From positions 33,290 to 97,289 of the forward strand of contig JASEGZ010000001.1 of NCBI GenBank assembly GCA_030018935.1: a stretch of DNA of 64,000 nt, given 5' to 3'. Positions 8,738 through 25,450 of the stretch are shown here, piece by piece; the first letter of the stretch is position 1, and each line of letters opens with the position of its first letter. The notes under the pieces are model-generated. The model searched no databases and was not told where the DNA came from. It worked only from the letters and a program-made list of their open reading frames with translations. This stretch comes from Syntrophales bacterium (GTDB taxonomy: Bacteria; Desulfobacterota; Syntrophia; Syntrophales; CG2-30-49-12). The position numbers and the translations under genes are program-made.

Positions 8738-8815
8738 TAAGGCACGATCTTGGCCCGGCAAAAATCACGGAAGTTGTTTACCGCAATAAAAAACTCCCGC
8801 ATCATCATGATCAAC
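8738..8815 (-). pseudogene. orphan 3'-terminal fragment of a hemN-like radical SAM gene (copy A of a direct repeat)
   Basis: 8739-8798 is 60/60 identical to 24181-24240, and the match continues to 8815 / 24254 with one 3-nt indel. The minus strand reads ...LIMMMREFFIAVNNFRDFCRAKIVP-stop, which is the C-terminus of the intact gene at 24179-25450 plus one extra Met codon. No upstream coding part is present. Confidence 0.8.
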
Positions 8816-9051
8816 AACCTTTCCTCCCCTATTCTTTCCCTATTGATGTCTATTGTGATTGTGGGAAAAAGGAAAGTAAATACAGTAAATATATGAGAAA
8901 TTATCTTACGGGTCAAGAAAATACCACATTTATCCGATCATGGCCTGAACCACCTCGAGTGGCGTTTCACCTGTGAAGACCTCACCGTTTTCCTCAAGCG
9001 GACGTTGGTGTGGTATCCGTACCAGCGTACCAGATGCAGTTGATCTGTCAA

Positions 9052-9144
9052 AGTAAACAAACCTCAAACTGGTGAATAAATCAGCGGTGGCGAGTTGGGA
9101 AGAGGGAAGAAAAGCCGCTATATGGACGCGCCCCCATGTTAGAG
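9052..9144 (-). other. attC-like site (most distal)
   Basis: Plus strand reads AGTAAAC ... aaatcagcggtggc ... gccgctatatgg ... GTTAGAG. The 14-nt inner arm aaatcagcggtggc is shared with the attC at 14901-14958. Confidence 0.5.
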
Positions 9145-9413
9145 TTTGTCGAGTGGCTTCAGCTATAAGAGTTACCTCCTATGGCTTCACTCCCAGCTAC
9201 CTGGATGAATGAGGAATTTCCAGGACAGGTCTCTCACCTGCAAGCCTTGAGTCCTCCACGGCGCACTTTTCCGCATCCGGCTCTTCAGGCAGGCTCACAG
9301 ATAATCTCTGATAGCCGAATCAGTTCCGTTCACAATGTTTCTCCAGGCTCTGTGTCCTGCATTGTCTCCCTTCCTCAGTACACCCGCCTGTCAACCCCTT
9401 CCCTCCACCGGCA

Positions 9414-9677
9414 TTACCCGGCTTCACCAGTACTATGGGTTGATCCGACTACTTGCGCCTTGTCCTTTTTCAGAAAGGAATATATTTGCAGCGCCGGGTA
9501 AATGATGCCTACGATACTGATTATGATCATCAAAGATGCGGAAAAAAATGTCATGACGAATTCAAAAGGGTTTTTCAGCTCATAGGAATTGCCAAGGTTG
9601 ACGATCCCAAAGGTCAGAAATAAAAGCGAAATTACGCCAAGTAAAGCATTTTTCATCCACCAGATAAACGATCCCAC
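9414..9677 (-). CDS. small membrane protein, unknown function (cassette ORF)
   Basis: 87 aa (GTG start; alternative ATG at 9654). Two hydrophobic helices (LLGVISLLFLTFGIV, SASLMIIISIVGIIY). No recognisable domain. Confidence 0.45.
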   Translation of the reverse strand: MGSFIWWMKNALLGVISLLFLTFGIVNLGNSYELKNPFEFVMTFFSASLMIIISIVGIIYPALQIYSFLKKDKAQVVGSTHSTGEAG

Positions 9678-9908
9678 TGTCCGTCCTTTCTTTTTGCCAT
9701 CTTACCAATAATCCTCAAATGAAGCAATCATGATATCCCTGTAAAAAAGGATAAAGCACTTTTGTTTAATTATTAATTTTGTTAGATGAAAGGGTAAAAC
9801 CCCTGTGTGTCTGGGGTTTCTGTTTTGTGATATAATTGACTACACCTACCTACAAGTCTACATATTTGAATATTTTAAAAAAGCGAAGATTACCAAAAGA
9901 AATAGGGA

Positions 9909-10000
9909 GGATAACGGTATCAGCATAAAAGAAGTTTTTGCGAAGCCAAAATGTGGGTGAACCCGCCTCTGGCGGACGAAGCTTTTATGCTGTGTTAGGC
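9909..10000 (-). other. attC site
   Basis: GGATAAC ggtatcagcataaaagaag ... gaagcttttatgctgt GTTAGGC, a 92-nt imperfect palindrome. Confidence 0.65.
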
Positions 10001-10060
10001 GATGCAGCGGGCTTTCTCTATTGTTCTTCATGATCATTTTCGTGATGCCCAACACGGCGA

Positions 10061-10111
10061 GCATAACCGGCTGGCAATGAAGCGCAGCGGAATTGCCAGT
10101 CCGAGTTGATG
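10061..10111 (-). other. attC site (short)
   Basis: GCATAAC cggctggcaat gaagcgcagcgg aattgccagtccga GTTGATG. Ends 7 nt before the stop of the 10118 ORF. Confidence 0.6.
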
Positions 10112-10117
10112 CGATTG

Positions 10118-10567
10118 TTATGGGAGATGTTTCAGATCCTCCAGATCCTTATACCTGCCACATGCCTGCTTGTTAGTCTTAAGATCCTCAATCGAAATGA
10201 AGTTCACCGATATGCCATCTATATCTATTACCTCTCGGCGCAAATAGCATTCATCGAAGTTTACACCAGAGGCTCCCGTTATTACTTCGATCCGGATGGG
10301 GGGAATCCCCATTCGGATAATCTTGTCCTTTTCGATGAACAAATCTTTAATCGCCTCTCTTTCCGGCATCCCAAAGTCACGAAGCACCTGTGCCATCTTT
10401 CTGGCATTTAGTTCGCTGACCGCGATCCAAATATCCATGTCACCAGTGGCACGCGGATAGCCATAATACCCCACAGCATATCCACCAATCATAAGGTACT
10501 CAACGCTGTGTAAGTTCAGCAGTCTCAAGAAATCTTTGAAGTCTGGATGTAGTTCGATCTGTGCCAT
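10118..10567 (-). CDS. nucleotidyltransferase-fold protein, putative TA-module component
   Basis: ORF 10118-10597, likely start MAQIELHPDFKDFLRLLN at 10567. The motif IGGYAVGYYGYPRATGDMDIWI resembles the minimal NTase fold GG...DxD. Paired with the small upstream ORF. Confidence 0.6.
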   Translation of the reverse strand: MAQIELHPDFKDFLRLLNLHSVEYLMIGGYAVGYYGYPRATGDMDIWIAVSELNARKMAQVLRDFGMPEREAIKDLFIEKDKIIRMGIPPIRIEVITGASGVNFDECYLRREVIDIDGISVNFISIEDLKTNKQACGRYKDLEDLKHLP

Positions 10568-10709
10568 AGACCATCCTTCGGTTAATCTCGATTGCATTCA
10601 AACGGTCGGCCTTTCCAAGGGACAGCCAGTACTGTTTCTCTTCCACAAATTCATCAAGGGAAGAGACAGTAAGTCGTGTTTTATCCAAGCGAGGCATTTC
10701 AATATCCAT
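10500..10709 (-). CDS. small protein partner of the NTase-fold protein (putative antitoxin-like)
   Basis: 69 aa. Its 3' end overlaps the downstream NTase gene, and it starts 26 nt after the attC box at 10735-10741. The C-terminal RLQRFLE motif recalls small proteins commonly paired with such NTases (from memory, not searched). Confidence 0.5.
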   Translation of the reverse strand: MDIEMPRLDKTRLTVSSLDEFVEEKQYWLSLGKADRLNAIEINRRMVYGTDRTTSRLQRFLETAELTQR

Positions 10710-10734
10710 GTCTCATTATTCCTTGCGTTTTTCC

Positions 10735-10865
10735 CATAACGTAAAGCTGAGTGGCTGGGCAACGATAACAGAAAAACTATGATAAAGATAAAAACTACCG
10801 GTTAAATACTGCCTCTCAAAAACCGGCACGGCTTTGCCCAGTCTATCTCCAGCGCCTGGTTGGGC
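10735..10865 (-). other. attC site
   Basis: CCATAAC gtaaagctgagtggctgggcaa ... ttgcccagtctatctccagcgcctg GTTGGGC, 131 nt. Ends 2 nt before the restriction enzyme stop codon. Confidence 0.65.
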
Positions 10866-10866
10866 C

Positions 10867-11622
10867 TTATTTCTTTCCTGAGTTGAATTGAATTACTTTT
10901 TCCCAATGAATTGCTCCGGTTGAATCGCAAAACATTTCCATAAATTCAAGGGAAAACTTATTGATAACCTTGCTGTCTTCTTCAAGAAATTGATCGTTTT
11001 TCTCTTTTGCTCGATGCCCAAGAGGTTCGATAATTTCAGTATATAAGTTGTCGTTGCCAGAAATAAAGGCCCAAAATCTTTGTCCACACAATTTCAGGTA
11101 TTCGCCTTTGTCGGGATTGTTGTCTTTGCCGTAACAACAACCATTGACTGCAATAACATTGAGAGATGAAGCAATGTTGGTTCCCAAAATACGCTTGGCC
11201 TTGCTAAAATTATCCTTCATTTTATTGATCTGGCTTGAGTTACCCCAGTTTGGCCCAGATTTAATGGAAACAATGTATTTAGCACTATCTTTTTCAAGCT
11301 CTAAGTCAATTCCTTCGGCAGAGGATTTGCTGCCATGATAAACATAGTTGCAAATATAAATTGCTAATCCTTCGAGAAAGCTACCGAATAATGTTTCTTC
11401 TTGTGAGGATAAATGAGCATCAAGAATCGTTTTTATAAAATCGCCAGCGGTAGTGATATGCTTGACCTTGAAAAGATAAGGATTTTTACGCTTGAGTACC
11501 GCTTTCAATTTGAGTTTCTTCAACTTTTCTATTCGGTTGTGATGAAACTCCGGTATCTTTCTCTCGACATACTCCGCTATTTTTTCTTTGGTTATTGGTT
11601 TTTCTTTGGTTATTGGTTTCAT
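10867..11622 (-). CDS. putative type II restriction endonuclease (TdeIII/Eco47II-like)
   Basis: ORF 10867-11706, likely start MKPITKEKPITKEKIAEYV at 11622. The motif EGIDLELEKDSAKYIVSIKSGPNWGNSSQ looks like a PD-(D/E)XK-type core, as I recall it from TdeIII/Eco47II-family enzymes. Adjacent to a methyltransferase. Confidence 0.55.
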   Translation of the reverse strand: MKPITKEKPITKEKIAEYVERKIPEFHHNRIEKLKKLKLKAVLKRKNPYLFKVKHITTAGDFIKTILDAHLSSQEETLFGSFLEGLAIYICNYVYHGSKSSAEGIDLELEKDSAKYIVSIKSGPNWGNSSQINKMKDNFSKAKRILGTNIASSLNVIAVNGCCYGKDNNPDKGEYLKLCGQRFWAFISGNDNLYTEIIEPLGHRAKEKNDQFLEEDSKVINKFSLEFMEMFCDSTGAIHWEKVIQFNSGKK

Positions 11623-12463
11623 ATTCAGCTTCGTCCTCGCATATTCTGTACTGATACTGGGCTGTCCTTTTTTGTGCAAGTTTGCAATATTCAGGAAGAA
11701 CATCAATGCCCACGGAGTTTCTGTTTAAGTTTTGGGCCACCTCTGCGGTAGTGCCGGAACCGGCAAAAGGGTCAAGTACCCAATCGTACTCTTTTGTGAA
11801 CAATTTAATAAACCATTCCGGTAGAGATTTTGGGAAAACTGCGCTGTGATTTTTGTTGTAACACTCGGTTGCAAAATGCAAAACATTTGTAGGATAAGCC
11901 ACGTCTCGACCTACCCAGTTTGAAATATTCTTGCCAAACCCGCTATTAACTTTTGATTCATCCCTGGTACGGTCAGTGTCGCTGAGTTTTTTTAAGCGAG
12001 TTTTTGCCCAATCACCCATAGTAACCATGACTTCTTCCTGGTACATATTGAACTTCTTGGATTTGTTAAATTGCAGACAACGTTCCCATGAGTCTCTAAA
12101 GCGGTTCGGCCATTTTCCAGGGAAACAATTCTTTTTATGCCATACAAACTCCTCTGTCCAAAGCCACCCCTGCTTACGTAAGGCTAATATTAACTCTATT
12201 ACGTATGTATGGCGTTCTCCATTGACCGCTTTTTCTTTTATGTTGAGAACAAAAGTGCCATCTATCTTTAGAACCCGAAGGAATTCTTTTGCTCGTGGCA
12301 AAAACCATTCAACATATTCATTTGGTTTGATGCCGCCGTATGTTTTACTTCTACTATCTGCATACGGTGGTGAAGTGATAATTAAATTAAAGAAATTATC
12401 TGGATACCGTTTAAGCACCTCTAAGCAGTCACCATTTTCTATTTTTGTTTTAATTTGTTCCAT
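11486..12463 (-). CDS. DNA methyltransferase, N4-C/N6-A beta class
   Basis: 325 aa with motif IV SPPY (IITSPPYADS) preceding motif I DPFAGSGTT, the beta-class order. The C-terminal ~45 aa overlap the REase gene out of frame and may be read-through. Confidence 0.85.
   Translation of the reverse strand: MEQIKTKIENGDCLEVLKRYPDNFFNLIITSPPYADSRSKTYGGIKPNEYVEWFLPRAKEFLRVLKIDGTFVLNIKEKAVNGERHTYVIELILALRKQGWLWTEEFVWHKKNCFPGKWPNRFRDSWERCLQFNKSKKFNMYQEEVMVTMGDWAKTRLKKLSDTDRTRDESKVNSGFGKNISNWVGRDVAYPTNVLHFATECYNKNHSAVFPKSLPEWFIKLFTKEYDWVLDPFAGSGTTAEVAQNLNRNSVGIDVLPEYCKLAQKRTAQYQYRICEDEAEYETNNQRKTNNQRKNSGVCREKDTGVSSQPNRKVEETQIESGTQA
11584..11619. repeat. perfect 18-bp tandem duplication in the MTase/REase overlap
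   Basis: ttctttggttattggttt x2. Encodes KPITKE-KPITKE in the REase frame and TNNQRK-TNNQRK in the MTase tail. Confidence 0.95.
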
Positions 12464-12565
12464 AATGTCTCCCTTTTCCGTTTCATGGAATGGGGTGATT
12501 ATAAACTATTATTGCAAGAATATCTTTATCTATTTTTTCCGGGCATGGAGCATAGTTTCAAGAAG

Positions 12566-12709
12566 CCCAATGCCGAGTTGAGCTGCAAAATTGCATGCAT
12601 AACGGATACGAAGTGGCTGGTTATGCAGGCAATTTTGTCAGCTCGAACGATTTGTTCACGCCGCTTGCGGCGGGGACAAATCGGAAGAGCGTAGCTCAAC
12701 TCGGCATTC
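12566..12709. repeat. ORF-less nested palindromes (possible empty or decayed cassettes, attC-like)
   Basis: Outer arms are aatgccgagttgagctgc (12568) and gtagctcaactcggcatt (12692). The inner mini-palindrome is GCATAAC...GTTATGC (12597-12626). GTTCACGccgcttgcggcgg (12654) pairs with ccgccgcaggcgacGTGAAC (to 12732). Confidence 0.4.
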
Positions 12710-12725
12710 ACGCCGCCGCAGGCGA

Positions 12726-12789
12726 CGTGAACAAAAAGCTAAGCGGGATGCCGGCTTTATGGCCGATCCGCTTCAGCGACTGGTTACAT
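12726..12789 (-). other. attC site
   Basis: CGTGAAC aaaaagctaagcgggatg ccggctttatggc cgatccgcttcagcgactg GTTACAT, 64 nt. Ends 6 nt before the DUF2971 stop codon. Confidence 0.65.
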
Positions 12790-12794
12790 GGCCT

Positions 12795-13691
12795 TTACTT
12801 TAGCCGCTCAAACTCAATCTTGTAGGCTCTCTGCCCGTCAACCGCTTTCCATATTTCCATATTGGGTAGACTCTGACCCGCCAATTCCATTATTTCCTCT
12901 TCGTCCTTGCGAGACATACGGCAGCCGAGATATATAGCTCCGAATACCTCCGAAGGCTCCCTGAAATCGATGGCGCCGCCCAGAGGATGCGTTTCATCGG
13001 TTATTGACACCCTCCACTCATTCTCGTAACGCCAGTCCTCACCTTTTACTAAAAGAAGGTCGCCCTCGCGTCTTCCCATATCTATTCGATTTATGCACAG
13101 TGCATGATCTACCCACTCCTCTTCGGCCACGAGTACTGGGTACTCTCTGGAATACCTCACTTTCTTCGCTGCCAAAAGAGGGACATCGAGTTTATCGATT
13201 GCATTGAGCTTGAAGACGGCTCCGGTGTGTGATCCTGTGTAGTGCGACCACATCAACAGATTGTCGTTCTCTTCTGCTAAACACAACACTCTCGTCTGAA
13301 AACGTGCACGCCTTGTCTCTTCATTGAACTCCGCAAGGGCGCGCTGGCCTGCCTGAATAATCTGTTGTCTGATCGTCTCAGCATTTCGCCGGAATGCTTC
13401 TCGCGGTATTACATCTTTATTTTTTTTGAACAGAACCAGAATGGTGCCAAAAGGGTGCGTCTCATCATATTGAATATCATCTCGTTCCCAGATGTACGTC
13501 TCGAATCGTTTTACGAGCAGTTCAAAAATGGCTTCAATGCGAGACTCCTCAAAGAATGCAAATCTGTGGTCGAACGGATCATTGAAATCGACGGGGCAAG
13601 ACCATCTCAGTGTGTGATTCTGGATTATCGACTTGGCAATTTTATTTGTCACATACTTAAAGAAGCAATCTCTATCGTGGTATCTCGGCAT
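12795..13691 (-). CDS. DUF2971-like protein (cassette ORF)
   Basis: 298 aa. The N-terminal pattern FFKYVTNKIAKSIIQNHTLRWSCPVDFNDPFD matches my recollection of the DUF2971 signature (...fs.p..fNDPfE). Confidence 0.55.
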   Translation of the reverse strand: MPRYHDRDCFFKYVTNKIAKSIIQNHTLRWSCPVDFNDPFDHRFAFFEESRIEAIFELLVKRFETYIWERDDIQYDETHPFGTILVLFKKNKDVIPREAFRRNAETIRQQIIQAGQRALAEFNEETRRARFQTRVLCLAEENDNLLMWSHYTGSHTGAVFKLNAIDKLDVPLLAAKKVRYSREYPVLVAEEEWVDHALCINRIDMGRREGDLLLVKGEDWRYENEWRVSITDETHPLGGAIDFREPSEVFGAIYLGCRMSRKDEEEIMELAGQSLPNMEIWKAVDGQRAYKIEFERLK

Positions 13692-13703
13692 TATCTTTCT
13701 ATC

Positions 13704-13835
13704 ATGTAACGACAGAATTGAGGGGGCGGGAAGCGCATACTGAAGATAGAACTATAGAGCCCCTATTTTGCGCTTACCGATGGCGGCGAAAAAAGCCGTA
13801 GCCTTTCCCGCTCCCTCTCGAATGATTTGTTCGGT
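13704..13835 (-). other. attC site
   Basis: ATGTAAC gacagaattgagggggcgggaag ... ctttcccgctccctctcgaatgattt GTTCGGT, 132 nt. Confidence 0.65.
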
Positions 13836-13843
13836 GCTATATT

Positions 13844-14251
13844 TCAGAATTGAACTTTATATGATCTTCCATCGTTAGTTCTGGCTTCACCAAAGCCATG
13901 CCCCGTCCATTCACTGTAAGCAACAATTATTTCCATCATCAAAGTTGATGTTTTACTTTTAAGCAATGCATAAGCTTGGCTTTTACCTCCAGACGATATA
14001 CCGTAACCAAAACCTGTCGCAGTTGCGGCACCAGAAAAAGCTGTAGCTGTGCCAAAAGAAAAGGAAGCATTACTTACAGCACTATACTTTCCTTTCAAAA
14101 CTTCGCCGTCAGGCATTACTACTGTTACAATCCGATTTAGTTCATTGTAATTGCCTTGTAATACCTGACCAGTTTGGAAATGCGTTATTTCAATTTTATG
14201 CACACACCCGGCTATTATAAAACTAAGCACAATCAATAAAAATCTTTTCAT
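13844..14251 (-). CDS. lipoprotein of unknown function (cassette ORF)
   Basis: ORF track starts at 14368. The likely start is MKRFLLIVLSFIIAGC at 14251 (signal peptide plus lipobox IAGC). The middle is Gly/Ala/Ser-rich. Confidence 0.6.
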   Translation of the reverse strand: MKRFLLIVLSFIIAGCVHKIEITHFQTGQVLQGNYNELNRIVTVVMPDGEVLKGKYSAVSNASFSFGTATAFSGAATATGFGYGISSGGKSQAYALLKSKTSTLMMEIIVAYSEWTGHGFGEARTNDGRSYKVQF

Positions 14252-14265
14252 TTTTCTTTTCTTAT

Positions 14266-14427
14266 TATAACACTGAACATTGAAGTCAGGGGGCAGCCAG
14301 GCCTGCCATTGACCTTTGCTACCGAACGTTCCACGCAATGTTCCGGATGGTATGCGTATGCGCGGCAACCTCTGCCAAAACCGCTGTGCCCCTGATCATA
14401 CACGTGCACTCTACTATTAGGTTCTTT
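14266..14427 (-). other. degenerate attC-like spacer
   Basis: Arms gtcagggggcag (14285) and ctgtgcccctgat (14384) pair, but the terminal boxes are poor (TATAAC / GTTCTTT). The two flanking genes may form one cassette. Confidence 0.3.
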
Positions 14428-14894
14428 CATTTGCCTAAACGAAGATACTTCTGGAACTTCTCTTTTGCTGGCTCAAACTGAGCGACGAGCCAGGTAAGCT
14501 CCTTATGCTTTTCCGATACAATCTTGTTGTGATCGTAGCCTTCCGGATGTACTTGTGTAATGTCGCGATACTCGTCATTCCATCGTCCAAGATTACAGCT
14601 GTGTGTATAGATTTCGTCGATATATTCCCTGATTTCGGGTCCAAAAAGAAAATCCGCTTCAGATACAGACGTGCGAAACTCAAGAAGATCGCTTAGGCTT
14701 GCCTTAGCATCACGCGCGATGATGCGTAAAATTTTTTGAACTTCCTCGTATATGCGAAGTCTTCTCTCATATAGATCGAGCTCAAGCTTTTGCCGGTTGG
14801 TTCGCCACTGTTGCCAGGCAATATACGTCGCAACTGCTGCGATCACAGGCGTCAGCAGGCCCTTTGAAATTTCAATTATCTGTTCTATGCACAT
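14427..14894 (-). CDS. single-pass membrane protein, unknown function (cassette ORF)
   Basis: 155 aa with an N-terminal TM helix (LLTPVIAAVATYIAWQQW) followed by a helical domain. Starts 7 nt after attC 14901-14958. Confidence 0.6.
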   Translation of the reverse strand: MCIEQIIEISKGLLTPVIAAVATYIAWQQWRTNRQKLELDLYERRLRIYEEVQKILRIIARDAKASLSDLLEFRTSVSEADFLFGPEIREYIDEIYTHSCNLGRWNDEYRDITQVHPEGYDHNKIVSEKHKELTWLVAQFEPAKEKFQKYLRLGK

Positions 14895-14900
14895 TTTGAA

Positions 14901-14958
14901 ACCGAACGACTGAAATCAGCGGTGGCTGTAAGCCATCCGCTGGAGTGACTTGTTAGGC
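14901..14958 (-). other. attC site (58 nt)
   Basis: ACCGAAC gactgaaatcagcggtggc tgtaa gccatccgctggagtgactt GTTAGGC. Confidence 0.7.
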
Positions 14959-15012
14959 GCTGATTATCTTCTGCCCTTTTCATAAAATCAATAATCAAGT
15001 CTGCCCCCCATC

Positions 15013-15564: not shown

Positions 15565-15617
15565 GTTATCTCTCTCCTTTTTGAAGCTCTGATTTGCTTT
15601 TTTGCGACAGGGTAATG

Positions 15618-15703
15618 GCCTAACGTAGAATTAAGCCGCCGGGCCGCTACCATGCTATGAACCACAAAGGGAATCCCCGGTCGGCTTGAATGACTGGTTA
15701 GAT
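15618..15703 (-). other. attC site
   Basis: GCCTAAC gtagaattaagccgccggg ... cccggtcggcttgaatgactg GTTAGAT. On the cassette strand the toxin stop codon TAA lies inside ATCTAAC, and the other box reads GTTAGGC. Confidence 0.75.
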
Positions 15704-16003: not shown

Positions 16004-16221
16004 TTTTTGCTCACTATTCTCTTGAAAACATCCTCCCACGGAGAACCTAAATCAGGATTCTGATGATACGCCTCTAATCTTTCATCGATTATCTTCTTTT
16101 CTTCTTCAGTTAATTCGACCGAGCCAGCTTCTACAGCTATCGTATCCCAAATGTCCTCTACCAGTTGAATTCTCTCTGGGATTGATAAATCAAGAGTATC
16201 AGTTACAGCAAGCGTTTTCAT
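16000..16221 (-). CDS. putative addiction-module antitoxin
   Basis: The track begins at TTG 16257. ATG at 16221 (MKTLAVTDTLDLSIPERIQLVEDIWDTI) follows AGGAGG. The pattern resembles the small 'addiction module component' family that pairs with ParE toxins. Confidence 0.7.
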   Translation of the reverse strand: MKTLAVTDTLDLSIPERIQLVEDIWDTIAVEAGSVELTEEEKKIIDERLEAYHQNPDLGSPWEDVFKRIVSKK

Positions 16222-17746: not shown

Positions 17747-19323
17747 CAGGGAATATACTAAAACTTGAAGATATTGATCTCAATTCCCAGTTCCGCCGTG
17801 CGCTTGAGCTGATGGAAGAGACGGATAAAAACATCTTCATTACAGGCCGGGCGGGTACCGGTAAATCAACGCTGCTTCAGTTTTTTCGTTACCACACAGG
17901 TAAAAATGCCGTGATTCTGGCGCCGACGGGCGTGGCCGCCGTCAATGTAGGCGGGCAGACCATCCATTACTTTTTTCATTTCAAACCGAATGTGACGCTG
18001 GCATCCATCAAAAAGAGAAAGAGCAAGGAAGAAGACAAACCGACAATTTACAAAAAGCTCACCGCAATTGTGATTGATGAGGTCTCGATGGTGCGTGCCG
18101 ACCTGCTGGACTGCGTGGATAAATTCCTACGGCTCAACGGTCCCGATCCAAAAAGACCCTTCGGCGGCGTGCAGATGATCTTCATCGGCGATCTGTATCA
18201 ATTGCCGCCCGTTGTCTCCAGCCGGGAAAAAGAGATATTCCGCGGGCATTATAAAAGCCCTTATTTCTTCAGCGCCGAAGTTTTCGGACAACTGGATATG
18301 GAGTTTGTCGAACTGGAAAAAGTTTACCGCCAGAATGATGATGAATTCATCCGTCTGCTCAACGCGATCCGTAACCGCACGGTTTCGGATGACGATCTGG
18401 CGCTGTTCAACCGCCGTTGTGATCCCTTGTTTGAAGCACCCGTCAATGAATTTTATATTTCGCTGACCAGCGTCAATGATACGGCCGATTCAATCAACGA
18501 GCGGCAACTTTCCCAATTGCCCGGCAAAATATGGAAAGCGCAAGGTCTGATCGAAGGGGAATTCGACAAGGAATATCTTCCGACAGCCTTGGAATTGAAA
18601 CTGAAAAAGGGCGCCCAGATCATGCTCCTGAACAATGATTCCTACGGACGCTGGATCAACGGCACCATAGGCAAGGTAACGGGATTTAAAAAAGATGACG
18701 AAGGCGAAGAGATCATTACCGCCAGATTGGATAATGGCAATATTGTGGAAATCGGTTACTACACTTGGAAAATATACCGTTTTTTCCTGAAGAATGGGGA
18801 GCTTTGTTCCGAAGCCGTTGGCTCGTTTACACAATATCCGGTGCGGCTGGCCTTTGCCGTTACCATTCATAAAAGCCAGGGCAAAACCTTTGAGAAGGCC
18901 GTCATTGATGTGGGACGAGGCACTTTTGCTCATGGACAAATGTACGTGGCGCTTTCGCGCTGCGTGTCCCTGGATGGGATCATCCTGAAACAGCCGCTGA
19001 AAAAAAGCCATATTCTGATGGATTGGCGTATTGTTCAATTTCTGACGCGCATGCAATACGACAAGGCGGAACAAAAATGCTCTCATGAAGATAAGCTGGA
19101 GATAATTCATTCAGCGATCAAAGAAAAGAAAAATCTGAATATCCTTTACTTGAAAGCAAAAGACGAAAAATCGTGCCGCACGATACGTCCGCTTTTTGTC
19201 GGAGAAATGGAATATAAAGGGCATCCTTTTGTCGGGATGAATGCCTATTGCCTGACGCGTAAGGAAAAGCGCGTTTTTAACGTGGATCGAATCTTGGAAA
19301 TCTGCTTTACGGAAAACAGATAA
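17743..19323 (+). CDS. pif1: Pif1-family SF1B DNA helicase with C-terminal WYL-like domain
   Basis: 526 aa. Walker A is GRAGTGKSTLL, motif II is VIDEVSMV, and FGGVQMIFIGDLYQLPPV and TIHKSQGKTF are present. The C-terminal ~75 aa (NILYLKAKDEKSCRTIRPLFVG...YCLTRKEKRVFNVDRILEI) fit the WYL pattern. The start ATG overlaps the intI stop (ATGA). Confidence 0.85.
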   Translation: MTGNILKLEDIDLNSQFRRALELMEETDKNIFITGRAGTGKSTLLQFFRYHTGKNAVILAPTGVAAVNVGGQTIHYFFHFKPNVTLASIKKRKSKEEDKPTIYKKLTAIVIDEVSMVRADLLDCVDKFLRLNGPDPKRPFGGVQMIFIGDLYQLPPVVSSREKEIFRGHYKSPYFFSAEVFGQLDMEFVELEKVYRQNDDEFIRLLNAIRNRTVSDDDLALFNRRCDPLFEAPVNEFYISLTSVNDTADSINERQLSQLPGKIWKAQGLIEGEFDKEYLPTALELKLKKGAQIMLLNNDSYGRWINGTIGKVTGFKKDDEGEEIITARLDNGNIVEIGYYTWKIYRFFLKNGELCSEAVGSFTQYPVRLAFAVTIHKSQGKTFEKAVIDVGRGTFAHGQMYVALSRCVSLDGIILKQPLKKSHILMDWRIVQFLTRMQYDKAEQKCSHEDKLEIIHSAIKEKKNLNILYLKAKDEKSCRTIRPLFVGEMEYKGHPFVGMNAYCLTRKEKRVFNVDRILEICFTENR

Positions 19324-19375: not shown

Positions 19376-20785
19376 CTATATGTGACTCAGCGGTTCGACC
19401 AGCCTGAGATCGTCTTTAATGGGGCTGACCCCGTCCCAGCACTTCAGGCAGAGGTCTTTTCTGGGAATGTCGAGGGCGGCAACGAAGGCGTCAATGCTGT
19501 TGTATTTAACGGAATCGGCGCCGATCTGGTCCGCCATCCAGGCTTCCATATCCCTGAGTTGTTCCATGGTCAGGATATTGCCGGTCTTAAGGTAACGCCT
19601 GGCGGCCAGCTCTTCATAGGAACGGGTGGAAATCCCGAAATCGCAGGGATACATCAAGGGCGGACAGGCAATGCGAACGTGCACTTCCTTTGCGCCGGCC
19701 TTTTTTAAATCCCTGACCTTATGGAGAATCTGCGTGCCTCTTACGATGGAGTCGTCGCAAAGGACGACGCGTGTGTTTTCCACTGCGTAGCGAAGAACGG
19801 AGAGCTTGCGTTTAGCCATCTGCTCGCGGGCATGCTGTGTGGACTGGGTATAGCTCCGGTCGGCGTAACGGTTGTAAAGAAACACCTCCTGATACTTGAT
19901 CCCAGATTGCTGGTGGTATCCGAGGGCATGGCCAATGCCGGACATGGGCACCGGCGCGACGATATCGGCTGCGATATACGCCTCGTCCATGTCCCGTTGG
20001 GCAAGGCTTTTGCCCAGGTTGTTCCGGGCTTCCTGGACATACAGGCCGTCAATAATTGAATCAATGCTGGCGGTGTATGCCCATTCAAAGGAACAGTGCG
20101 CTTTCCGGGGGGAGTCAAGCTGTTTCACAGAGTGAAAACCCCGGCCGTTGATCAGGACGATTTCTCCCGGTTTAATGTCGCGGTAGATCTCCATATCCAT
20201 GTTCTGAAGCGCCCTGGATTCGGAGCTCACGGCATAGCGTCCGGCGTCCTGACCCAGGATTAAAGGACGAAATCCATAGACATCCCTCGTGGCATAGATC
20301 CCTTCCTCGGTCAGGATGACAAGAGAATAGGCGCCTTTGATCCGTTTTGAGAGGGCGGAGATGCCGGAGACCATGTCCGGCGCTTCCATAACGATCTTGG
20401 CAATGACCTCTGTGTCGTAGTCCCGGTAAAAGGCATGGCCATGATCCTTCATTTCCCGGATCAGTTCACCAGAATTGATGATATTGCCGCTGAAGGCAAC
20501 GGATATCTGTCCGAGCCGTGATTGCCAGGTCATCGGCTGGCGTTCCGACAGGCTGACATGCCCGATGCCCGAGCTGCCGGACAGGTAGTTAAATTCGTTT
20601 TCGGTGAAAGAATTAGCCGCCTTGCCGTGATGGGTTACATGGCGGATCTGGCTGTCAAAGGTTGCAATGCCGCAGTATTCCTGCCCCCTGTGCTGTAGAA
20701 AGTCCATCCCCTGGTAGATATCCTGAATACAGGCCGCAGGGGAGTAAATTCCGAAAATGCCGCATTTTTCTCCAAATGATTTCAT
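19376..20785 (-). CDS. purF: amidophosphoribosyltransferase
   Basis: 469 aa with an Ntn-type Cys after a short propeptide (MKSFGEKCGIFGIY) and the PRPP motif VVLCDDSIVRGTQ. Confidence 0.85.
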   Translation of the reverse strand: MKSFGEKCGIFGIYSPAACIQDIYQGMDFLQHRGQEYCGIATFDSQIRHVTHHGKAANSFTENEFNYLSGSSGIGHVSLSERQPMTWQSRLGQISVAFSGNIINSGELIREMKDHGHAFYRDYDTEVIAKIVMEAPDMVSGISALSKRIKGAYSLVILTEEGIYATRDVYGFRPLILGQDAGRYAVSSESRALQNMDMEIYRDIKPGEIVLINGRGFHSVKQLDSPRKAHCSFEWAYTASIDSIIDGLYVQEARNNLGKSLAQRDMDEAYIAADIVAPVPMSGIGHALGYHQQSGIKYQEVFLYNRYADRSYTQSTQHAREQMAKRKLSVLRYAVENTRVVLCDDSIVRGTQILHKVRDLKKAGAKEVHVRIACPPLMYPCDFGISTRSYEELAARRYLKTGNILTMEQLRDMEAWMADQIGADSVKYNSIDAFVAALDIPRKDLCLKCWDGVSPIKDDLRLVEPLSHI

Positions 20786-20812: not shown

Positions 20813-23800
20813 CTATCGGATGTCTGCGTGGTAGTTCTGGAGCGATCTTGCCCTTCCGTGTCCTTCGCGGAAGGCGGCAATGCCCTTTACGGCCGCAACG
20901 GCTGCGGCCACGGTCGTGATATACGGTATTTTATACTTGATGGCGGCCTTGCGTATGTATGAATCATCATGAGTGCCGAGCCTGCCTGTCGGCGTATTGA
21001 TAACGAGTTGTATCTCCCCGTTCTTTATTCCATCCACAATATTTGGCCGGCCTTCGTGCATCTTCAGAATCGGTTCGGATGCGATGCCGTTTGCGGCGAG
21101 GAATTGGCATGTCCCGCCCGTTGTCTTGATCTTGAAACCCAATTCCTCGAATCTTCGGGCCACTTCCAGAACGGCGTTTTTATCCTTCTGGTTTACCGTG
21201 ATCAGCACCGTGCCTTCCCCGGGAAGCGTCTGCTGGGCCGCGACCTGTGCCTTGTAGAAGGCCAATCCAAAGGAATCGGCCAGTCCCAGGACTTCTCCGG
21301 TAGAGCGCATCTCGGGGCCAAGGAGAGGATCGACTTCCTGAAGCATGTTGAAAGGGAAGACGGCCTCCTTGACTCCGAAGTGGGGAAATGATTTTTGTTT
21401 CAGGTCGAAATCCTTAAGTTTTTTCCCCAGCATGACCTGCGTGGCAATGCGCGCCATCTGAATGTTGCAGACCTTGGAAACCAGGGGCACCGTGCGTGAG
21501 GCCCGCGGGTTGGCCTCCAGTATGTAAACCACATCGCCGGCAATGGCGTATTGAATGTTCATCAGGCCGACAACATTAAATTCAACGGCGATCTTGCGGG
21601 TATATTCACGTATGGTTTCGATATGCCTGGCGGGGATGCTGATAGGGGGAATGACGCATGCGGAATCGCCGGAATGGATGCCGGCCAGCTCGATATGCTC
21701 CATCACTGCCGGAACGAAAGCATCGGCGCCGTCCGAGATGGCATCCGCTTCCGCCTCAATAGCGTTTTCAAGGAATTTGTCTATCAGAATAGGGCGTTCT
21801 GGCGTCACGCCGACAGCGGCGGCCACATAGCGCTTCAGCATATCTTCGTCATAGACAACCTCCATACCCCTGCCGCCGAGGACATAGGAAGGCCTGACCA
21901 TCAGGGGATAGCCGATTTCTTTCGCAATCCGGACCGCTTCATCCAGGGTGGAGGCCATACCGGACGCGGGCATGGGAATATTGAGCTTTTGCATCATCTT
22001 GCGGAAACGGTCGCGGTCTTCAGCCAGGTCTATGGTTTCCGGCGAGGTGCCGATGATTGTTGCTCCCGACTGCGCCAGTTCGGCGGCAATGTTCAGCGGC
22101 GTCTGTCCGCCAAACTGAACGACAACGCCCTCGGGTTTTTCTTTTTCATAGATGGCGAGTACATCCTCGACAGTCAGAGGTTCAAAGTAGAGCTTGTCCG
22201 AGGTGTCGTAATCGGTGGAGACTGTTTCAGGGTTGCAGTTGACCATGATCGATTCATAGCCTTCATCGCGCAGAGTAAAGGCGGCGTGGACGCAGCAGTA
22301 GTCGAATTCGATGCCCTGGCCGATCCGGTTCGGACCTCCGCCTAAGACCATGATCTTTTTCCGATTGCTTGTGGGAACGCTGTCAGGCGCATTGTAAGTG
22401 GAAAAATAATAGGCCGCATTTTCCACCCCGCTTACGGGGACGGCTTCCCAGCCTTCCACGACGCCGAGAGCAGTGCGGCGTTTGCGTATATCCGCTTCAG
22501 GGACATCCAGTATCTTTGCCAGATATCTGTCGGCGAAACCGTCCTTCTTGGCCACAATCAGCAGTTTGTCCGGCAGCATCTTTCCCTTATATTTGAGGAT
22601 TTCCGTTTCCATCTCCACGAGTTCTTTCATCTGCCGGATGAACCAGTGCTTGATGTGGGTCTTCCGATGGAGGGTATCGCAATCGGCGCCTTTTCGCAGG
22701 GCCTCGTACATGATAAATTGCCTTTCACTCGAAGGCGCCGCAAGGAGGTCCATGAGATCTTCAAGGGGCTTGTCATGGAAATTCTTGACAAAACCGAGTC
22801 CATAGCGGCTTTTTTCCAATGAACGGATGGATTTCTGGAAGGCTTCCTTGTAGGTTTTTCCAATGCTCATCACCTCGCCTACCGCCCGCATCTGGGTACC
22901 GAGCTTATCCTCGGAACCGGGGAACTTCTCAAAGTCCCAGCGGGCGAACTTGACCACCACGTAATCGCCGGAGGGCGTGTATTTGTCGAGCGTACCGTCC
23001 CGCCAGTAGGGTATTTCATCGAGGGTAAGACCGGCAGCCAGCATGGAAGAAATCATGGCGATGGGGAAGCCCGTGGCCTTGGAGGCCAGAGCCGACGAGC
23101 GGGATGTCCGGGGATTGATCTCGATGACCACGATCCGGCCTGTTTCCGGATCGTGGGCGAACTGGATGTTGGTGCCCCCAATGACCTGAATTGCCTCGAC
23201 GATATCATAGGAATATTTCTGCAGCCGCTGCTGCAATTCGGGGGCTATCGTAAGCATAGGAGCGGTGCAGTAAGAATCGCCGGTATGTATGCCCATCGCA
23301 TCCACATTCTCGATAAAGCAAACGGTAATCATCTGGTTCTTGGTGTCACGGACCACTTCAAGTTCCAGTTCTTCCCAGCCCAAGACAGATTCCTCAATAA
23401 GTATCTGGCCGATAAGGCTCGCCGATAGCCCGCGGCCGGCCACTATTCTCAATTCTTCGAGATTGTAAACGAGCCCCCCGCCTGTCCCTCCCATCGTGTA
23501 TGCCGGACGTATAACCACCGGGTAACCGAGCTGGATGGCGATCTTTTCCGCCTCCTCAACGCTTAAGGCGGCTTCGCTTCGGGGCATACCGATGCCGAGG
23601 CGTGTCATAGTTTCTTTGAAAGCGATCCTGTCTTCTCCCCGTTCGATAGCATCGACCCGCACGCCGATCACCTGAACGCCATACTTTTCCAGGACGCCGG
23701 CACGGGCAAGTTCGGAAGTAAGGTTCAGGCCGGTCTGTCCGCCAAGGTTCGGCAGGATGGCATCAGGACGTTCATTTTCGATGATTTCCGTCAGGGACTG

Positions 23801-24019
23801 GAGGTTAAGGGGCTCCAGGTAGGTGACATCGGCCATGCCTGGATCCGTCATGATAGTTGCCGGATTGGAATTGACCAGGACAATCTTGTACCCCAACTTT
23901 CGCAAGGCCTTACAGGCCTGGGTGCCGGAATAGTCAAACTCGCAGGCCTGGCCGATCACGATTGGCCCGGATCCTATGATAAGAACTTTATGGATGCTGT
24001 CGATTATTGGCATATTCAA
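20813..24019 (-). CDS. carB: carbamoyl-phosphate synthase large subunit
   Basis: 1068 aa with duplicated ATP-grasp halves and a typical CarB N-terminus (KVLIIGSGPIVIGQACEFDYSGTQA). No carA is adjacent. Confidence 0.95.
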   Translation of the reverse strand: MNMPIIDSIHKVLIIGSGPIVIGQACEFDYSGTQACKALRKLGYKIVLVNSNPATIMTDPGMADVTYLEPLNLQSLTEIIENERPDAILPNLGGQTGLNLTSELARAGVLEKYGVQVIGVRVDAIERGEDRIAFKETMTRLGIGMPRSEAALSVEEAEKIAIQLGYPVVIRPAYTMGGTGGGLVYNLEELRIVAGRGLSASLIGQILIEESVLGWEELELEVVRDTKNQMITVCFIENVDAMGIHTGDSYCTAPMLTIAPELQQRLQKYSYDIVEAIQVIGGTNIQFAHDPETGRIVVIEINPRTSRSSALASKATGFPIAMISSMLAAGLTLDEIPYWRDGTLDKYTPSGDYVVVKFARWDFEKFPGSEDKLGTQMRAVGEVMSIGKTYKEAFQKSIRSLEKSRYGLGFVKNFHDKPLEDLMDLLAAPSSERQFIMYEALRKGADCDTLHRKTHIKHWFIRQMKELVEMETEILKYKGKMLPDKLLIVAKKDGFADRYLAKILDVPEADIRKRRTALGVVEGWEAVPVSGVENAAYYFSTYNAPDSVPTSNRKKIMVLGGGPNRIGQGIEFDYCCVHAAFTLRDEGYESIMVNCNPETVSTDYDTSDKLYFEPLTVEDVLAIYEKEKPEGVVVQFGGQTPLNIAAELAQSGATIIGTSPETIDLAEDRDRFRKMMQKLNIPMPASGMASTLDEAVRIAKEIGYPLMVRPSYVLGGRGMEVVYDEDMLKRYVAAAVGVTPERPILIDKFLENAIEAEADAISDGADAFVPAVMEHIELAGIHSGDSACVIPPISIPARHIETIREYTRKIAVEFNVVGLMNIQYAIAGDVVYILEANPRASRTVPLVSKVCNIQMARIATQVMLGKKLKDFDLKQKSFPHFGVKEAVFPFNMLQEVDPLLGPEMRSTGEVLGLADSFGLAFYKAQVAAQQTLPGEGTVLITVNQKDKNAVLEVARRFEELGFKIKTTGGTCQFLAANGIASEPILKMHEGRPNIVDGIKNGEIQLVINTPTGRLGTHDDSYIRKAAIKYKIPYITTVAAAVAAVKGIAAFREGHGRARSLQNYHADIR

Positions 24020-24178
24020 ATCTGTTCCTTCTGCCCGTCATGATGGCGACAGGCAAGTTATGCAGACATATTATCTGTCCGGGCGCTGGTCATGGCCGAG
24101 GCGTACTTCACGGAATTTGCATAGAACAGCCATTGCCTTATCCACATCTGCTCTATGGTTTCATCAAAGGTAGTAGTA

Positions 24179-25450
24179 TCAAGGCACGATCTTGGCCCGG
24201 CAAAAATCACGGAAGTTGTTTACCGCAATAAAAAACTCCCGCATCATGATCAACCACGTATAACACCCCCGTCTGGTCAGGTAGAAACAGGGCGGGCGAT
24301 AACGCAGATCGCCTGTTAGGATAAAAGCGGCAATATCAGGCCAGAGATATCTGTAAAACCTCCCACCGTATTTTTTGCGCAGGGCAGGGACATCCAGTTT
24401 CGTGCCGAAGAGCTTCATCAGGAAATCATAACGTATCCTGTCTTTAAGGGAAAAATTACCGGAGGCCAGCAGAGGCAATTCCCCCTGGTTTACCGCGGCG
24501 ATATATTCCTGGATGTCAAAGGTATTTGCATAACACCTGCCGTTTAAGTATCCGATGGATCCGCTGCCAAGCCCCGCATACTCGTCATAATCAACGATAT
24601 ACTCGTCAATAATGGAGACTGTTTTTGTTCTGGAGAAACACCAGGCCGAGGAGAAGCGGTATGCCGGCGCCAGCCGTTTTACAATTTGGCGGTAAAACTG
24701 TTTTTCTCTGTCGTAATCCACCTGTCCCAGTGTCTTATTGATTACCCCTCGTGTGGAATCGGAAACCATCAGCGGATAGTAGGTGATCTGATCTACCCCT
24801 GTTTCCATCAGGATGTCCAGGTCCCTGTCGAGCCCTGCCATGCTCTGAGAGGGAAAGTTAAAGATCATATCCGCATTGAGGGTAGCAAACAGTCCCAGGG
24901 TCTGCTTCAGCCGTTCCGTAATGACCTCGCCGCTTCCGTATTTATCATACCGTTCCATCTCCTTCAGGAGACCATCGTCAAAGCTCTGTACACCCACCGA
25001 AAGGCGACTTACACCGGCCCGCTTCAAAACCGCCATATTTTTATCTGTCAGATGGTTCGGGTTTGTCTCGACGGAAATTTCCTCGATGCGAAAACAATCC
25101 CTCGCCAGGGCTATTGTTTCTTCCAGTTCGTCAATCAGGATGGTCGGGGTTCCCCCTCCCACATAGAGGCCGCAGAAGTCGCAGCCCTTTTCTCTATAGA
25201 GCAGTATCTCTTTCCGGAGGGCACGGAAGTAATTTCGGCAAAGGGTATCTTCAAAGACGACACGATGGAAAGAACAGTAAGGACAGAGCCTCTCACAGAA
25301 GGGGATGTGAATATAGAGAAGTCTTGGCTTCCTAAGGCTACAGGTAGGGATATCCGGCTTCACCCCATCTCTGAATCTCATCGCCCTGGCAAACTTCTGC
25401 CGGGCTTTCCTGGTAATGATGTCATGAATTCTCGGTATTAATCTCATCAA
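24179..25450 (-). CDS. HemN/HemW-like oxygen-independent coproporphyrinogen-III oxidase family radical SAM protein
   Basis: 423 aa with CxxxCxxC (IPFCERLCPYCSF) and the GGGTPT motif. Its last 25 codons are the source of repeat copy B. Confidence 0.8.
   Translation of the reverse strand: MMRLIPRIHDIITRKARQKFARAMRFRDGVKPDIPTCSLRKPRLLYIHIPFCERLCPYCSFHRVVFEDTLCRNYFRALRKEILLYREKGCDFCGLYVGGGTPTILIDELEETIALARDCFRIEEISVETNPNHLTDKNMAVLKRAGVSRLSVGVQSFDDGLLKEMERYDKYGSGEVITERLKQTLGLFATLNADMIFNFPSQSMAGLDRDLDILMETGVDQITYYPLMVSDSTRGVINKTLGQVDYDREKQFYRQIVKRLAPAYRFSSAWCFSRTKTVSIIDEYIVDYDEYAGLGSGSIGYLNGRCYANTFDIQEYIAAVNQGELPLLASGNFSLKDRIRYDFLMKLFGTKLDVPALRKKYGGRFYRYLWPDIAAFILTGDLRYRPPCFYLTRRGCYTWLIMMREFFIAVNNFRDFCRAKIVP
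24181..24254. repeat. copy B of the 74/77-nt direct repeat (3' end of the hemN-like gene)
   Basis: 24181-24240 is identical to 8739-8798, then gcatcatgatcaac versus gcatcatCATgatcaac. Confidence 0.95.

Follow-up and report, generated by a model that had tools for sequence, protein, structure and literature searches.

A duplicated radical-SAM gene end around an integron and core genes in a Syntrophales bacterium: the probable scar of an old chromosomal rearrangement

Introduction

The 3' end of one gene is present twice, in the same orientation and about 15 kb apart, in a contig of an uncultured Syntrophales bacterium, and between the two copies lie an integron and the genes pif1, purF and carB. 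How did such an arrangement arise? A preliminary description of this DNA likened the repeat to the attL/attR footprint of an element that had integrated into the end of a HemN-like gene, and named a segmental duplication junction as the alternative. We analyzed the whole stretch of 64,000 nucleotides (the window; assembly GCA_030018935.1, contig JASEGZ010000001.1, positions 33,290 to 97,289) together with related loci and metagenome contigs, which are given L numbers below.

Results

A repeat search of the window found a single two-copy family, the direct repeat 8739-8815/24181-24257, and a gapped alignment pairs 8739-8818 with 24181-24257. The repeat is therefore real, and its exact run is 67 nt long (8739-8805 equals 24181-24247) instead of the 60 nt claimed at first; the two copies differ by one 3-nt CAT/ATG indel and one mismatch. 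Read on the minus strand, both copies, here called A and B, end in ...(M)MMREFFIAVNNFRDFCRAKIVP followed by a stop codon, TAA at 8737-8739 in copy A and TGA at 24179-24181 in copy B, and the first base of the repeat is the T common to both stops. Alignment and minus-strand reading bear out the in-frame indel and the differing stop codons of the preliminary description. Copy B (24181..24257, minus strand), delimited by the repeat search and the alignment, is the working 3' end of an intact radical-SAM gene of the coproporphyrinogen-III-oxidase family (24179..25450, minus strand), which is divergent from def and 422/423 amino acids long. Its product matches NCBIfam PRK08629 with 498 bits, in accordance with the earlier view that copy B is the true C-terminus of this gene, and its homologues across Syntrophales are 60-93% identical. 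Copy A (8739..8818, minus strand) holds only the last ~26 codons of such a gene and the T of its stop codon. As had been noted, it is an orphan fragment near selA (selenocysteine synthase; 7248..8663, minus strand): there is no gene body upstream of it, and the selA start codon (8663) is 73 nt away.

The preliminary description had also considered that the repeat might prove to be a dispersed multi-copy element. The core 26-mer of the repeat has two matches in the window, copies A and B, where shuffled sequences lead us to expect none, and it has one match in each of six related loci and one in each of eight metagenome contigs. With a single match in each of these loci and contigs, the repeat is no dispersed element. 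Of all 60-nt windows in the radical-SAM gene, the last is the most conserved (identity 0.95-0.96 vs 0.86 overall). Its identity at third codon positions, 0.88, is not the highest of all windows, so this conservation is mainly driven by the protein, and a constraint at the nucleotide level was set aside. Variants specific to a lineage are shared by both kinds of copy: copies A and B of the window both read AAGATCGTGCCT, while the orphan of L097 and the working copy of L091 both read AAAATCAT. Such sharing within a genome suggests, as far as these sequences go, that gene conversion may have kept copies A and B alike.

The synteny comparison proposed in the preliminary description, whether the HemN-like gene directly precedes selA in relatives, gave a positive answer. 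In most of about 50 Syntrophales loci from a GTDB scan, def is followed, in divergent orientation, by the radical-SAM gene and then by selA, rluD and rho, and in more than 12 of them the conserved order extends to prfA, prmC, murA and hisD. The same genes (rluD, rho, prfA, prmC, murA, hisD) come after selA in the window, which stops within hisD. The two partners can be very tightly packed: in Syntrophus buswellii the radical-SAM ORF (9965-11308) overlaps selA (11301-12719; TIGR00474, 608 bits), the stop of the former lying across the start of the latter. The 15.4 kb of the window are an insertion into the ancestral junction between the radical-SAM gene and selA, its downstream partner, and copy A is the original gene end, displaced yet still joined to selA.

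The content of the insertion, namely cassettes, intI, a pif1-WYL helicase gene, purF and carB, is as it had been described. Beside the intact radical-SAM gene, a short flank, F (24167..24178, minus strand; TACTACTACCTT...), comes directly after the TGA of copy B; it is common to the window, L001, L002, L091 and L094 and missing after the orphans. It measures 12-40 nt, with a further 75 nt in L001. Flank F has diverged in step with its host gene, and its inheritance has therefore been vertical. In L002 the radical-SAM gene and flank F are followed by hisS, so that this site has seen more than one event. Next to flank F we found 29 codons of a multihaem cytochrome gene (24082..24168, minus strand; amino acids 374-402), identified by tblastn against the intact gene of L098. 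By its alignment, this remnant marks the carB-side breakpoint of the block. It is followed by carB (20813..24019, minus strand; carbamoyl-phosphate synthase large subunit, assigned by profile matches) and by a purF-like amidophosphoribosyltransferase gene (19376..20785, minus strand), whose match to TIGR01134, 330.5 bits, is slightly below the cut-off of 350 bits. The chromosomal origin of the block is evident from L098, which is 88.8% identical to the window across 7.9 kb and in which SurA, an intact cytochrome gene (441 aa), carB and purF are followed, on the opposite strand, by pif1 and intI. Different lengths of the cytochrome are kept elsewhere: amino acids 279-441 in L001, between the radical-SAM gene and carB, amino acids 420-441 in L094 and the last five codons in L091. 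L091 and L095 have large deletions in carB and pif1, which fit a redundant, duplicated block.

The integron integrase gene intI (16436..17746, plus strand) matches TIGR02249 with 409 bits (cut-off 265) over positions 4-314 of 315 and has an N-terminal extension of ~105 aa. Its stop is overlapped by 4 nt by the start of the gene for a Pif1-family helicase with a WYL domain (17743..19323, plus strand), which is 72-83% conserved across Syntrophales. The two genes adjoin in the window, L001, L086/87, L091 and L098; in L089 a fragmented recombinase lies beside pif1, and in L088 pif1 occurs without intI. Together, intI and pif1 make up a conserved locus of the chromosome. Pointing away from intI, the cassette array (9909..16260, minus strand) has a GC content of 40-45% and carries a ParE toxin cassette, several ORFs of unknown function, a DUF2971 protein, an EcoO109I-type restriction-modification pair and a putative toxin-antitoxin pair. 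The cassettes are separated by six attC-like sites on the minus strand (15700-15618, 14958-14901, 13835-13704, 12789-12726, 10122-10047 and 10000-9909), which have xxxxAAC ... GTTxxxx ends and fold into hairpins; they were picked manually, by eye and by folding, and not with a dedicated attC model. In Pfam and NCBIfam scans of the ORFs, IntI, an integron-type tyrosine recombinase, is the sole recombinase in 8.6-25.5 kb, and it lies 6.4-7.6 kb from the repeats.

Between the last attC and copy A lies segment S (8819..9853, minus strand). It contains an 87-aa membrane-protein ORF (9414-9677), the 19 final codons of a DprA-like gene (9084-9140), an IS3-OrfA-like remnant (in L093 an IS adjoins) and a D1-D4 fragment of a group II intron (9134-9243, with a weak further match at 9395-9482). 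The intron fragment scores 57 bits with RF02003 in the window and 90.6 bits in L097, and it is on the strand of the cassette ORFs, in the same orientation as the radical-SAM gene. Intron domains V/VI and a reverse transcriptase were absent from 8.8-9.5 kb and from L097, and RF00029 gave no match at E<=10. A sigma70-like promoter sequence (8916-8888; TTGACC-17-TATATT), which is kept in L097, points toward copy A and selA. From this arrangement, selA would now be transcribed from the putative promoter in S, with a predicted start at about 8880 and with the orphan within its leader. Around copy A and selA, Rfam at a permissive threshold gave neither a riboswitch nor a leader, a search beside copy A gave neither attC nor R'' boxes, and the window has no tRNA or tmRNA gene that could be an alternative att target. 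No source of flank F or of segment S was found in any of the fetched loci.

Both junctions recur in other contigs, all of which are independent assemblies. An orphan with the identical left junction (..GGGGAGGRAAGG joined to TTGTTGATC) is also present in L090, which is 92% identical to the window, and in L093 and L097, which are 87% identical in selA. Its recurrence in these three contigs establishes the scar as one old, inherited event. The order radical-SAM gene, flank F, cytochrome remnant, carB recurs in L001, L091/92/95 and L094. All orphans have TAA and are without flank F, while all working copies beside carB have TGA and flank F; the window contig is the only one in which both junctions are linked across the cassette array. 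L005 is of the TAA type without an insertion and co-occurs with L001 in one sample. Among 78 related loci, for which 10 kb downstream of the radical-SAM gene were fetched, none has a second end of this gene, and an integrase beside the gene was absent from the related loci apart from an intI-like pseudogene in L011. A 55-nt tandem-like repeat in a Coriobacteriaceae locus (L067) is seemingly unrelated. In L088 the pif1 locus is ~6 kb downstream of hisD, and the block may therefore derive from close by, L088 being a more distant relative and the sole one to show this position near hisD. Placement of the event on the tree of the radical-SAM gene was dropped because that tree is mosaic and recombinant.

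Discussion

We consider it probable that the repeat is the scar of an old chromosomal rearrangement, made by illegitimate joins, rather than a footprint left by a mobile element. Ancestrally, the radical-SAM gene would have formed a tight operon with selA, and a chromosomal block of at least 15 kb was joined at the extreme end of the radical-SAM gene. This block starts in the middle of the cytochrome gene, takes in carB, purF, pif1-WYL, intI and the array up to its far end, and closes with the junk segment S. One of the joins falls on the stop codon with which the radical-SAM gene ends, the other ~80 nt upstream of that stop; it is because of this stagger that the last ~80 nt of the gene are present twice. 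Copy B, upstream, completes the working gene, and copy A, downstream, is the original end stranded on selA. The orphan has kept its native neighbor selA while its 5' border abuts the unrelated segment S, as is expected of displacement. From the anatomy of the joins we infer that they were illegitimate and not site-specific. The same anatomy would allow two specific mechanisms. In the first, a neighboring block would have been locally duplicated in inverted orientation or transposed, either by the remodelled tandem-inversion-duplication type of event or through a pair of inversions with a staggered break. In the second, recombination would have used homology at one end only, the other end being joined illegitimately (homology-facilitated illegitimate recombination). 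Of relevance to a donor are the different allele types (TAA vs TGA with flank F) and the mosaic identities of the regions, the block itself being Syntrophales-like.

That the repeats are instead the attL/attR of a site-specific island, prophage or ICE which entered the radical-SAM gene at its 3' end, supplied a replacement for that end and has since decayed, with chromosomal DNA invading it, we regard as unlikely. Direct repeats of 77-80 nt do enclose the insert, the target gene is made whole by one of them, the copy in the intact gene brings a stop of its own (TGA) along with the hairpin-like flank F, the orphan retains the TAA type of the insertion-free L005, and mobile debris is present in S and in L093. 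However, neither end has a recombinase, IntI in the middle of the block being the only one in the Pfam and NCBIfam scans, and the insert starts within a truncated cytochrome gene which in L098 is intact and chromosomal. The cargo consists of conserved core genes in the chromosomal synteny carB-purF-pif1-intI and lacks discrete ends, flank F was inherited vertically, and the 78 related loci have no repeated gene end in the 10 kb fetched downstream and, apart from the pseudogene of L011, no integrase at this site. The preliminary description was right about an insertion between the HemN-like gene and selA, which synteny supports, but its site-specific attL/attR interpretation is not supported; its alternative, a segmental duplication junction, comes closer.

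It is very improbable that IntI itself made the left junction by recombining the last attC with a GTT that served as a secondary site within the radical-SAM gene. It is true that copy A begins its homology with GTTGATC, where an IntI crossover would fall between the G and the TT, the exact reverse complement GATCAAC lies where the last cassette ORF ends, in the place expected for R'', and an intact intI is at hand. Coincidence of a 7-mer is nevertheless insignificant over a sequence of this length, the 80-150 nt upstream of the junction form no attC, with no R'' box and no matching L''/L' pairing, and this mechanism leaves the breakpoint in the cytochrome gene unexplained and would have to account for one at a stop codon without GTT. 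Just as improbable is a fusion of the array to the orphan through homologous recombination of two group II intron copies, one in the gene at about -80 nt and one at the array end. The D1-D4 fragment does come after the last cassette and before copy A, in the orientation of the gene, and introns are frequent in the last cassettes of integrons (PMC3001079). But even at E<=10 neither domain V/VI nor a reverse-transcriptase ORF was detected, and the working copies of the gene are all free of introns. As the fragment and copy A are separated by ~320 nt (2.4 kb in L097) of unrelated sequence, the 3' end of the intron is not at the junction. Group IIC-attC introns, moreover, insert in the bottom strand of attC, opposing the transcription of the cassettes (PMC3001079), whereas the fragment has the opposite orientation and is far from a complete intron of this class. 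Least probable of all is a chimeric join of the contig via a short shared sequence: although the window comes from a metagenome-assembled genome, with identical proteins (MDI6775672/3/5) on a contig of 108.5 kb, and both copies are spanned by this contig only, both types of junction recur in independent assemblies from other samples (L001, L090, L091-L097), the repeats are internal to the contig, 15 kb apart and not at a contig join, and copies A and B differ by an indel and a stop codon.

A chromosomal rearrangement by illegitimate joins has parallels among known systems. Orphaned 3' gene ends are found at Rhs, CDI and T6SS effector loci, where they are ascribed to homology-facilitated illegitimate recombination (PMC5361080 and references therein; PMC3240628). 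Here, as there, a conserved upstream gene body could be the homologous anchor to which new DNA is joined, and the old 3' end is pushed downstream and survives as a short piece with a stretch identical to the working gene. Unlike those loci, the gene is a housekeeping radical-SAM enzyme and not a polymorphic toxin, and the insert is 15 kb of chromosomal genes of its own lineage with an integron and not a new effector tip. With islands, prophages and ICEs at gene 3' ends the locus shares repeats of tens of nucleotides, a replacement end and an empty site in relatives, but it differs from them in having no recombinase at an end, one end in a truncated chromosomal gene, conserved core genes as cargo and a site that is not used recurrently. 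Remodelled tandem inversion duplications and staggered-break inversions duplicate the sequence at their breakpoints. Both would resemble our case in that an inverted nearby segment lies between direct copies of the breakpoint and redundant genes decay, as carB and pif1 do in L091/L095. The integron is similar to sedentary chromosomal integrons, with divergent cassettes beside intI, attC-like sites, low-GC cassettes containing toxin-antitoxin and restriction-modification genes, and a position beside pif1 that is conserved within the clade. It differs in being a passenger in the rearrangement, which it gives no sign of having caused.

It is also conceivable, if rather doubtful, that copies A and B are an active recombination substrate and that the orphan has been co-opted as a translated leader which keeps selA expressed. 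If this were true, the 15-kb block with a complete chromosomal integron, carB, purF and pif1 could be lost by recombination from repeat to repeat and transferred among related Syntrophales by homologous recombination in the flanking core genes, and genomes of the L005 type (TAA, no block) would be the products of such recombination.

The rearrangement is an ordinary one and reveals no new kind of system, and its use is in genome annotation and in studies of integron location. It indicates that a short duplicated gene end can mimic the footprint of att sites, and that comparative synteny and the identity of the other end of the insert, here a truncated cytochrome gene, tell such a scar from the integration of a mobile element. 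For the uncultured Syntrophales it means that a sedentary integron has moved, along with housekeeping genes, into a conserved operon, and that selA, the downstream gene of this operon, now has a stranded gene fragment and a new promoter-like site upstream.

Results

The repeat and its genomic setting

A repeat search of the window gave a single two-copy family, 8739-8815 and 24181-24257, which gapped alignment lengthens to 8739-8818 (copy A) versus 24181-24257 (copy B). The two are identical over a run of 67 nt (8739-8805 and 24181-24247) and elsewhere differ by a mismatch and a 3-nt indel, which falls in a CAT/ATG run. Both read ...MMREFFIAVNNFRDFCRAKIVP and then a stop codon on the minus strand, TAA at 8737-8739 for copy A and TGA at 24179-24181 for copy B, and the repeat starts exactly at the T common to these stop codons. 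Copy B is the end of an intact gene (24179-25450, minus strand) for a 422/423-aa radical-SAM protein of the coproporphyrinogen-oxidase family (PRK08629, 498 bits), hereafter radSAM, and copy A is an orphan without the gene body; 73 nt separate it from the start codon of selA, downstream at 8663. The preliminary description was therefore right that the 3' end of a hemN-like gene is repeated at two sites. A core 26-mer occurs in the window only at copies A and B (shuffles expect 0) and has one match each in six related loci and in eight metagenome contigs (L numbers below denote such loci and contigs), therefore the repeat is not a dispersed multi-copy element, an objection which that description had anticipated. 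Conservation within the working radSAM gene peaks over its last 60 nt (0.95-0.96 versus 0.86) and is mainly protein-driven there.

The window originates from a MAG of an uncultured Syntrophales bacterium (identical proteins MDI6775672/3/5). Left of copy A lie hisD, murA, prmC, prfA, rho, rluD and selA on the minus strand. Copy A is followed by a mosaic of about 1 kb, segment S (8819-9853), and by an integron cassette array (9.9-16.3 kb, minus strand, 40-45% GC) whose ORFs comprise a ParE toxin, a DUF2971 protein, an EcoO109I-type restriction-modification pair and others of unknown function, and which also has six attC-like hairpins (ends xxxxAAC...GTTxxxx). Next comes plus-strand intI (TIGR02249, 409 bits versus a cut-off of 265), overlapped at its stop by the start of the gene for a Pif1-family helicase with a C-terminal WYL domain, then purF, carB and radSAM on the minus strand and, past radSAM, the divergent plus-strand genes def, gcvH, lipA and lpdA. 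The restriction endonuclease (PF14511, E 5e-88) and the N6/N4 DNA methylase (10867-12463, minus strand) lie jointly between attC-like sites, apparently as an integron cassette that holds the entire restriction-modification system; where the two ORFs overlap, 18 nt are perfectly duplicated in tandem (11581-11616). GC skew over 1-64000 is negative on the left, where genes are on the minus strand, and becomes strongly positive on the right, where they are on the plus strand, carB and purF being minus-strand genes with skew near zero. Its cumulative minimum falls near 16-17 kb, at the intI/attI boundary; this pattern is origin-like but could simply track gene orientation. Arrays of a 7-nt unit (GTCATAA/GTCGTAA-like, 3.6-11 copies) are found on both strands in at least five intergenic regions (3230-3267, 4399-4436, 26659-26683, 53019-53075 and 60410-60487), some being long imperfect inverted repeats of each other. 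The core-gene region right of the block also holds a 40-nt inverted repeat (30379-30418 and 40817-40856, 90% complementary, 10.4 kb between its arms) and, with 24 kb between its copies, a 51-nt direct repeat (33204-33254 and 57257-57307, 82% identical).

Ancestral gene order

With one genome taken per species, the order def | radSAM -> selA -> rluD -> rho was found in most of about 50 Syntrophales loci, and in more than 12 it continues to prfA-prmC-murA-hisD. TIGR00474 matches of 607-608 bits in L008 and L030 identify the gene downstream of radSAM as a true selA, and in Syntrophus buswellii, whose genome is complete, the selA start (11301) lies within the radical-SAM ORF (9965-11308). Adjacency in relatives and this overlap therefore indicate a tight radSAM-selA operon as the ancestral state, and orphan copy A is still attached to selA as in that order. 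The preliminary description had proposed this synteny comparison as a test of hemN-like/selA adjacency; judged by gene order, it is confirmed that the window carries 15.4 kb inserted into the ancestral operon. Other inserts 3' of radSAM are, in the close relative L005, the nickel-pincer cofactor genes larB and larE (NF033503, 297 bits, and TIGR00268, 325 bits) at 4325-5885 between radSAM and selA, hisS-aspS in L002, a 510-aa gene in L015 and about 6 kb of other genes in L075; this variety makes the 3' side of radSAM a recurrent breakpoint. L011, a more distant Syntrophales-like MAG with radSAM 67% identical, has a split intI-like gene (5567-7004) about 1.3 kb downstream of radSAM on the opposite strand, which is a second, independent pairing of an integron-type integrase with the radSAM locus.

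Junctions and the fate of the orphan

Every working copy that precedes a cytochrome remnant and carB ends in TGA followed by flank F, TACTACTACCTTGATAGTATAGGAATTTCCCTTTTA, of which 12 to 40 nt are retained; F is also present in L002, there with hisS downstream. The orphans of the window, L090 and L093/L097 all have TAA as their stop and no F, and their left junction is the same, ..GGGGAGGRAAGG|TTGTTGATC. As the orphan-bearing contigs differ by 7-13% outside it, this common junction points to a single old event. L005, from the same sample as L001 (the closest relative sharing the window's arrangement, radSAM 93% identical), is of the TAA type with larB-larE and has no orphan, therefore the block is polymorphic among co-occurring relatives. 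As the radical-SAM gene tree is mosaic, L005 may be either ancestral or a secondary loss.

Segment S contains a sigma70-like site, TTGACC-17-TATATT (8916-8888), directed at copy A and selA and kept in L097, and the orphan starts with in-frame TTG/ATG codons behind a GGAGG box; transcription of selA therefore probably begins in S now, which would place the orphan in the leader. The orphan sequences of L090 (Val to Ala, extra ATG missing) and L097 (last two residues altered) give no clear sign of selection on the orphan. Within each genome the two copies have lineage-specific variants in common, AAGATCGTGCCT in both window copies and AAAATCAT... in both L097 and L091. The window copies also agree exactly over 67 nt, although between lineages the adjoining S region diverges by 7%. 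The simplest reading of these sequences would be gene conversion between copies A and B.

At the end of the cassette array, S also carries a group II intron D1-D4 fragment (9134-9243, with a weak match at 9395-9482, minus strand; RF02003, 57 bits), matched with 90.6 bits in L097; neither reverse transcriptase nor domain V/VI was found with the fragment in S or L097. Between the window and L097, identity reaches 97.8% in this part of S and only 87% in the adjoining selA. In L097/L093 the fragment is followed by 1.4 kb, deleted in the window, with an IS3-OrfA-like remnant and a 228-aa DprA-like ORF (PF02481, E 1e-10); in L097 the features of this region lie at 590-910 and 1655-2341.

Origin of the block

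L098 has the order mreC <- mreB ... SurA -> multihaem cytochrome (441 aa) -> carB -> purF -> <-pif1 <-intI and is 88.8% identical to the window across 7.9 kb. Cytochrome codons 279-441 persist in L001 within the 800 nt separating radSAM from carB, only codons 374-402 (24168-24082) in the window, codons 420-441 in L094 and the last five codons in L091. On the carB side the insert therefore ends at a break within a chromosomal gene, whose remnant then decayed independently in four lineages. Across Syntrophales, the pif1-WYL helicase shows 72-83% conservation and adjoins intI in the window, L001, L086/87, L091 and L098, a fragmented recombinase in L089 and no intI in L088. Conservation of the pairing makes the integron sedentary and chromosomal, at a conserved locus, and the block is DNA of the lineage itself rather than a discrete mobile element. 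The intI-pif1 pair (16436-19323, plus strand), with an N-terminal extension of about 105 aa in the integrase, recurs in L001, L086, L087 and L098; it may reflect a functional integron-helicase link or simply a conserved insertion site. In L091 (9180-12290) and L095, related to window 18.4-24.2 kb, the radSAM-adjacent carB has two internal deletions that leave only aa 411-463 and 898-1068, and pif1 is fragmented, with purF (94%) and intI (98%) intact, which implies a second carB elsewhere in that genome.

Discussion

Both junctions recur in independent assemblies, which makes an assembly artefact unlikely. The main idea of the preliminary description, a site-specific element with the two copies as its attL/attR footprint, fails: the block ends lack a recombinase, one boundary is a broken gene, the cargo consists of core genes and, among 78 related loci covered over 10 kb downstream, the site shows no recurrent use. 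It is attractive to let IntI make the junction at the GTT of GTTGATC, as GATCAAC is present at the end of the last cassette ORF, but the junction has no attC beside it. The D1-D4 fragment in S suggests recombination between copies of a group II intron; against such recombination stand the missing domain V/VI and reverse transcriptase, the distance of the fragment from the junction (320 nt, 2.4 kb in L097) and an orientation opposite to that described for attC-targeting introns.

What is left is a complete gene with a new flank, a displaced block with a broken gene on one side and junk on the other, and an old gene end still on its native neighbor. This three-part anatomy argues for an illegitimate join, by which the radSAM-selA junction would have received the block, and not for site-specific integration, and the repeat is best read, from sequence comparison, as an inherited rearrangement scar rather than an att-site pair. 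One possible route is local inverted duplication or transposition of the block. In L088 the pif1 locus and cassette-like genes lie about 6 kb downstream of hisD, therefore the block may once have lain just past the selA-hisD segment in opposite orientation. The arrangement radSAM - block (inverted) - 80-nt repeat - selA...hisD would then result from a tandem inversion duplication that deletions trimmed, or from two inversions of which the first had a staggered break, and the large carB and pif1 deletions of L091/L095 fit initial redundancy. The other route would be recombination that is homologous within radSAM at one end and illegitimate at the other, a mechanism put forward for 3' ends orphaned at Rhs and T6SS loci (PMC5361080; PMC3240628); the difference between TAA and TGA+F alleles would fit it. 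Both routes fit the anatomy. The event is of a known kind, in which the integron was a passenger, and the locus is a well-resolved example of this type.
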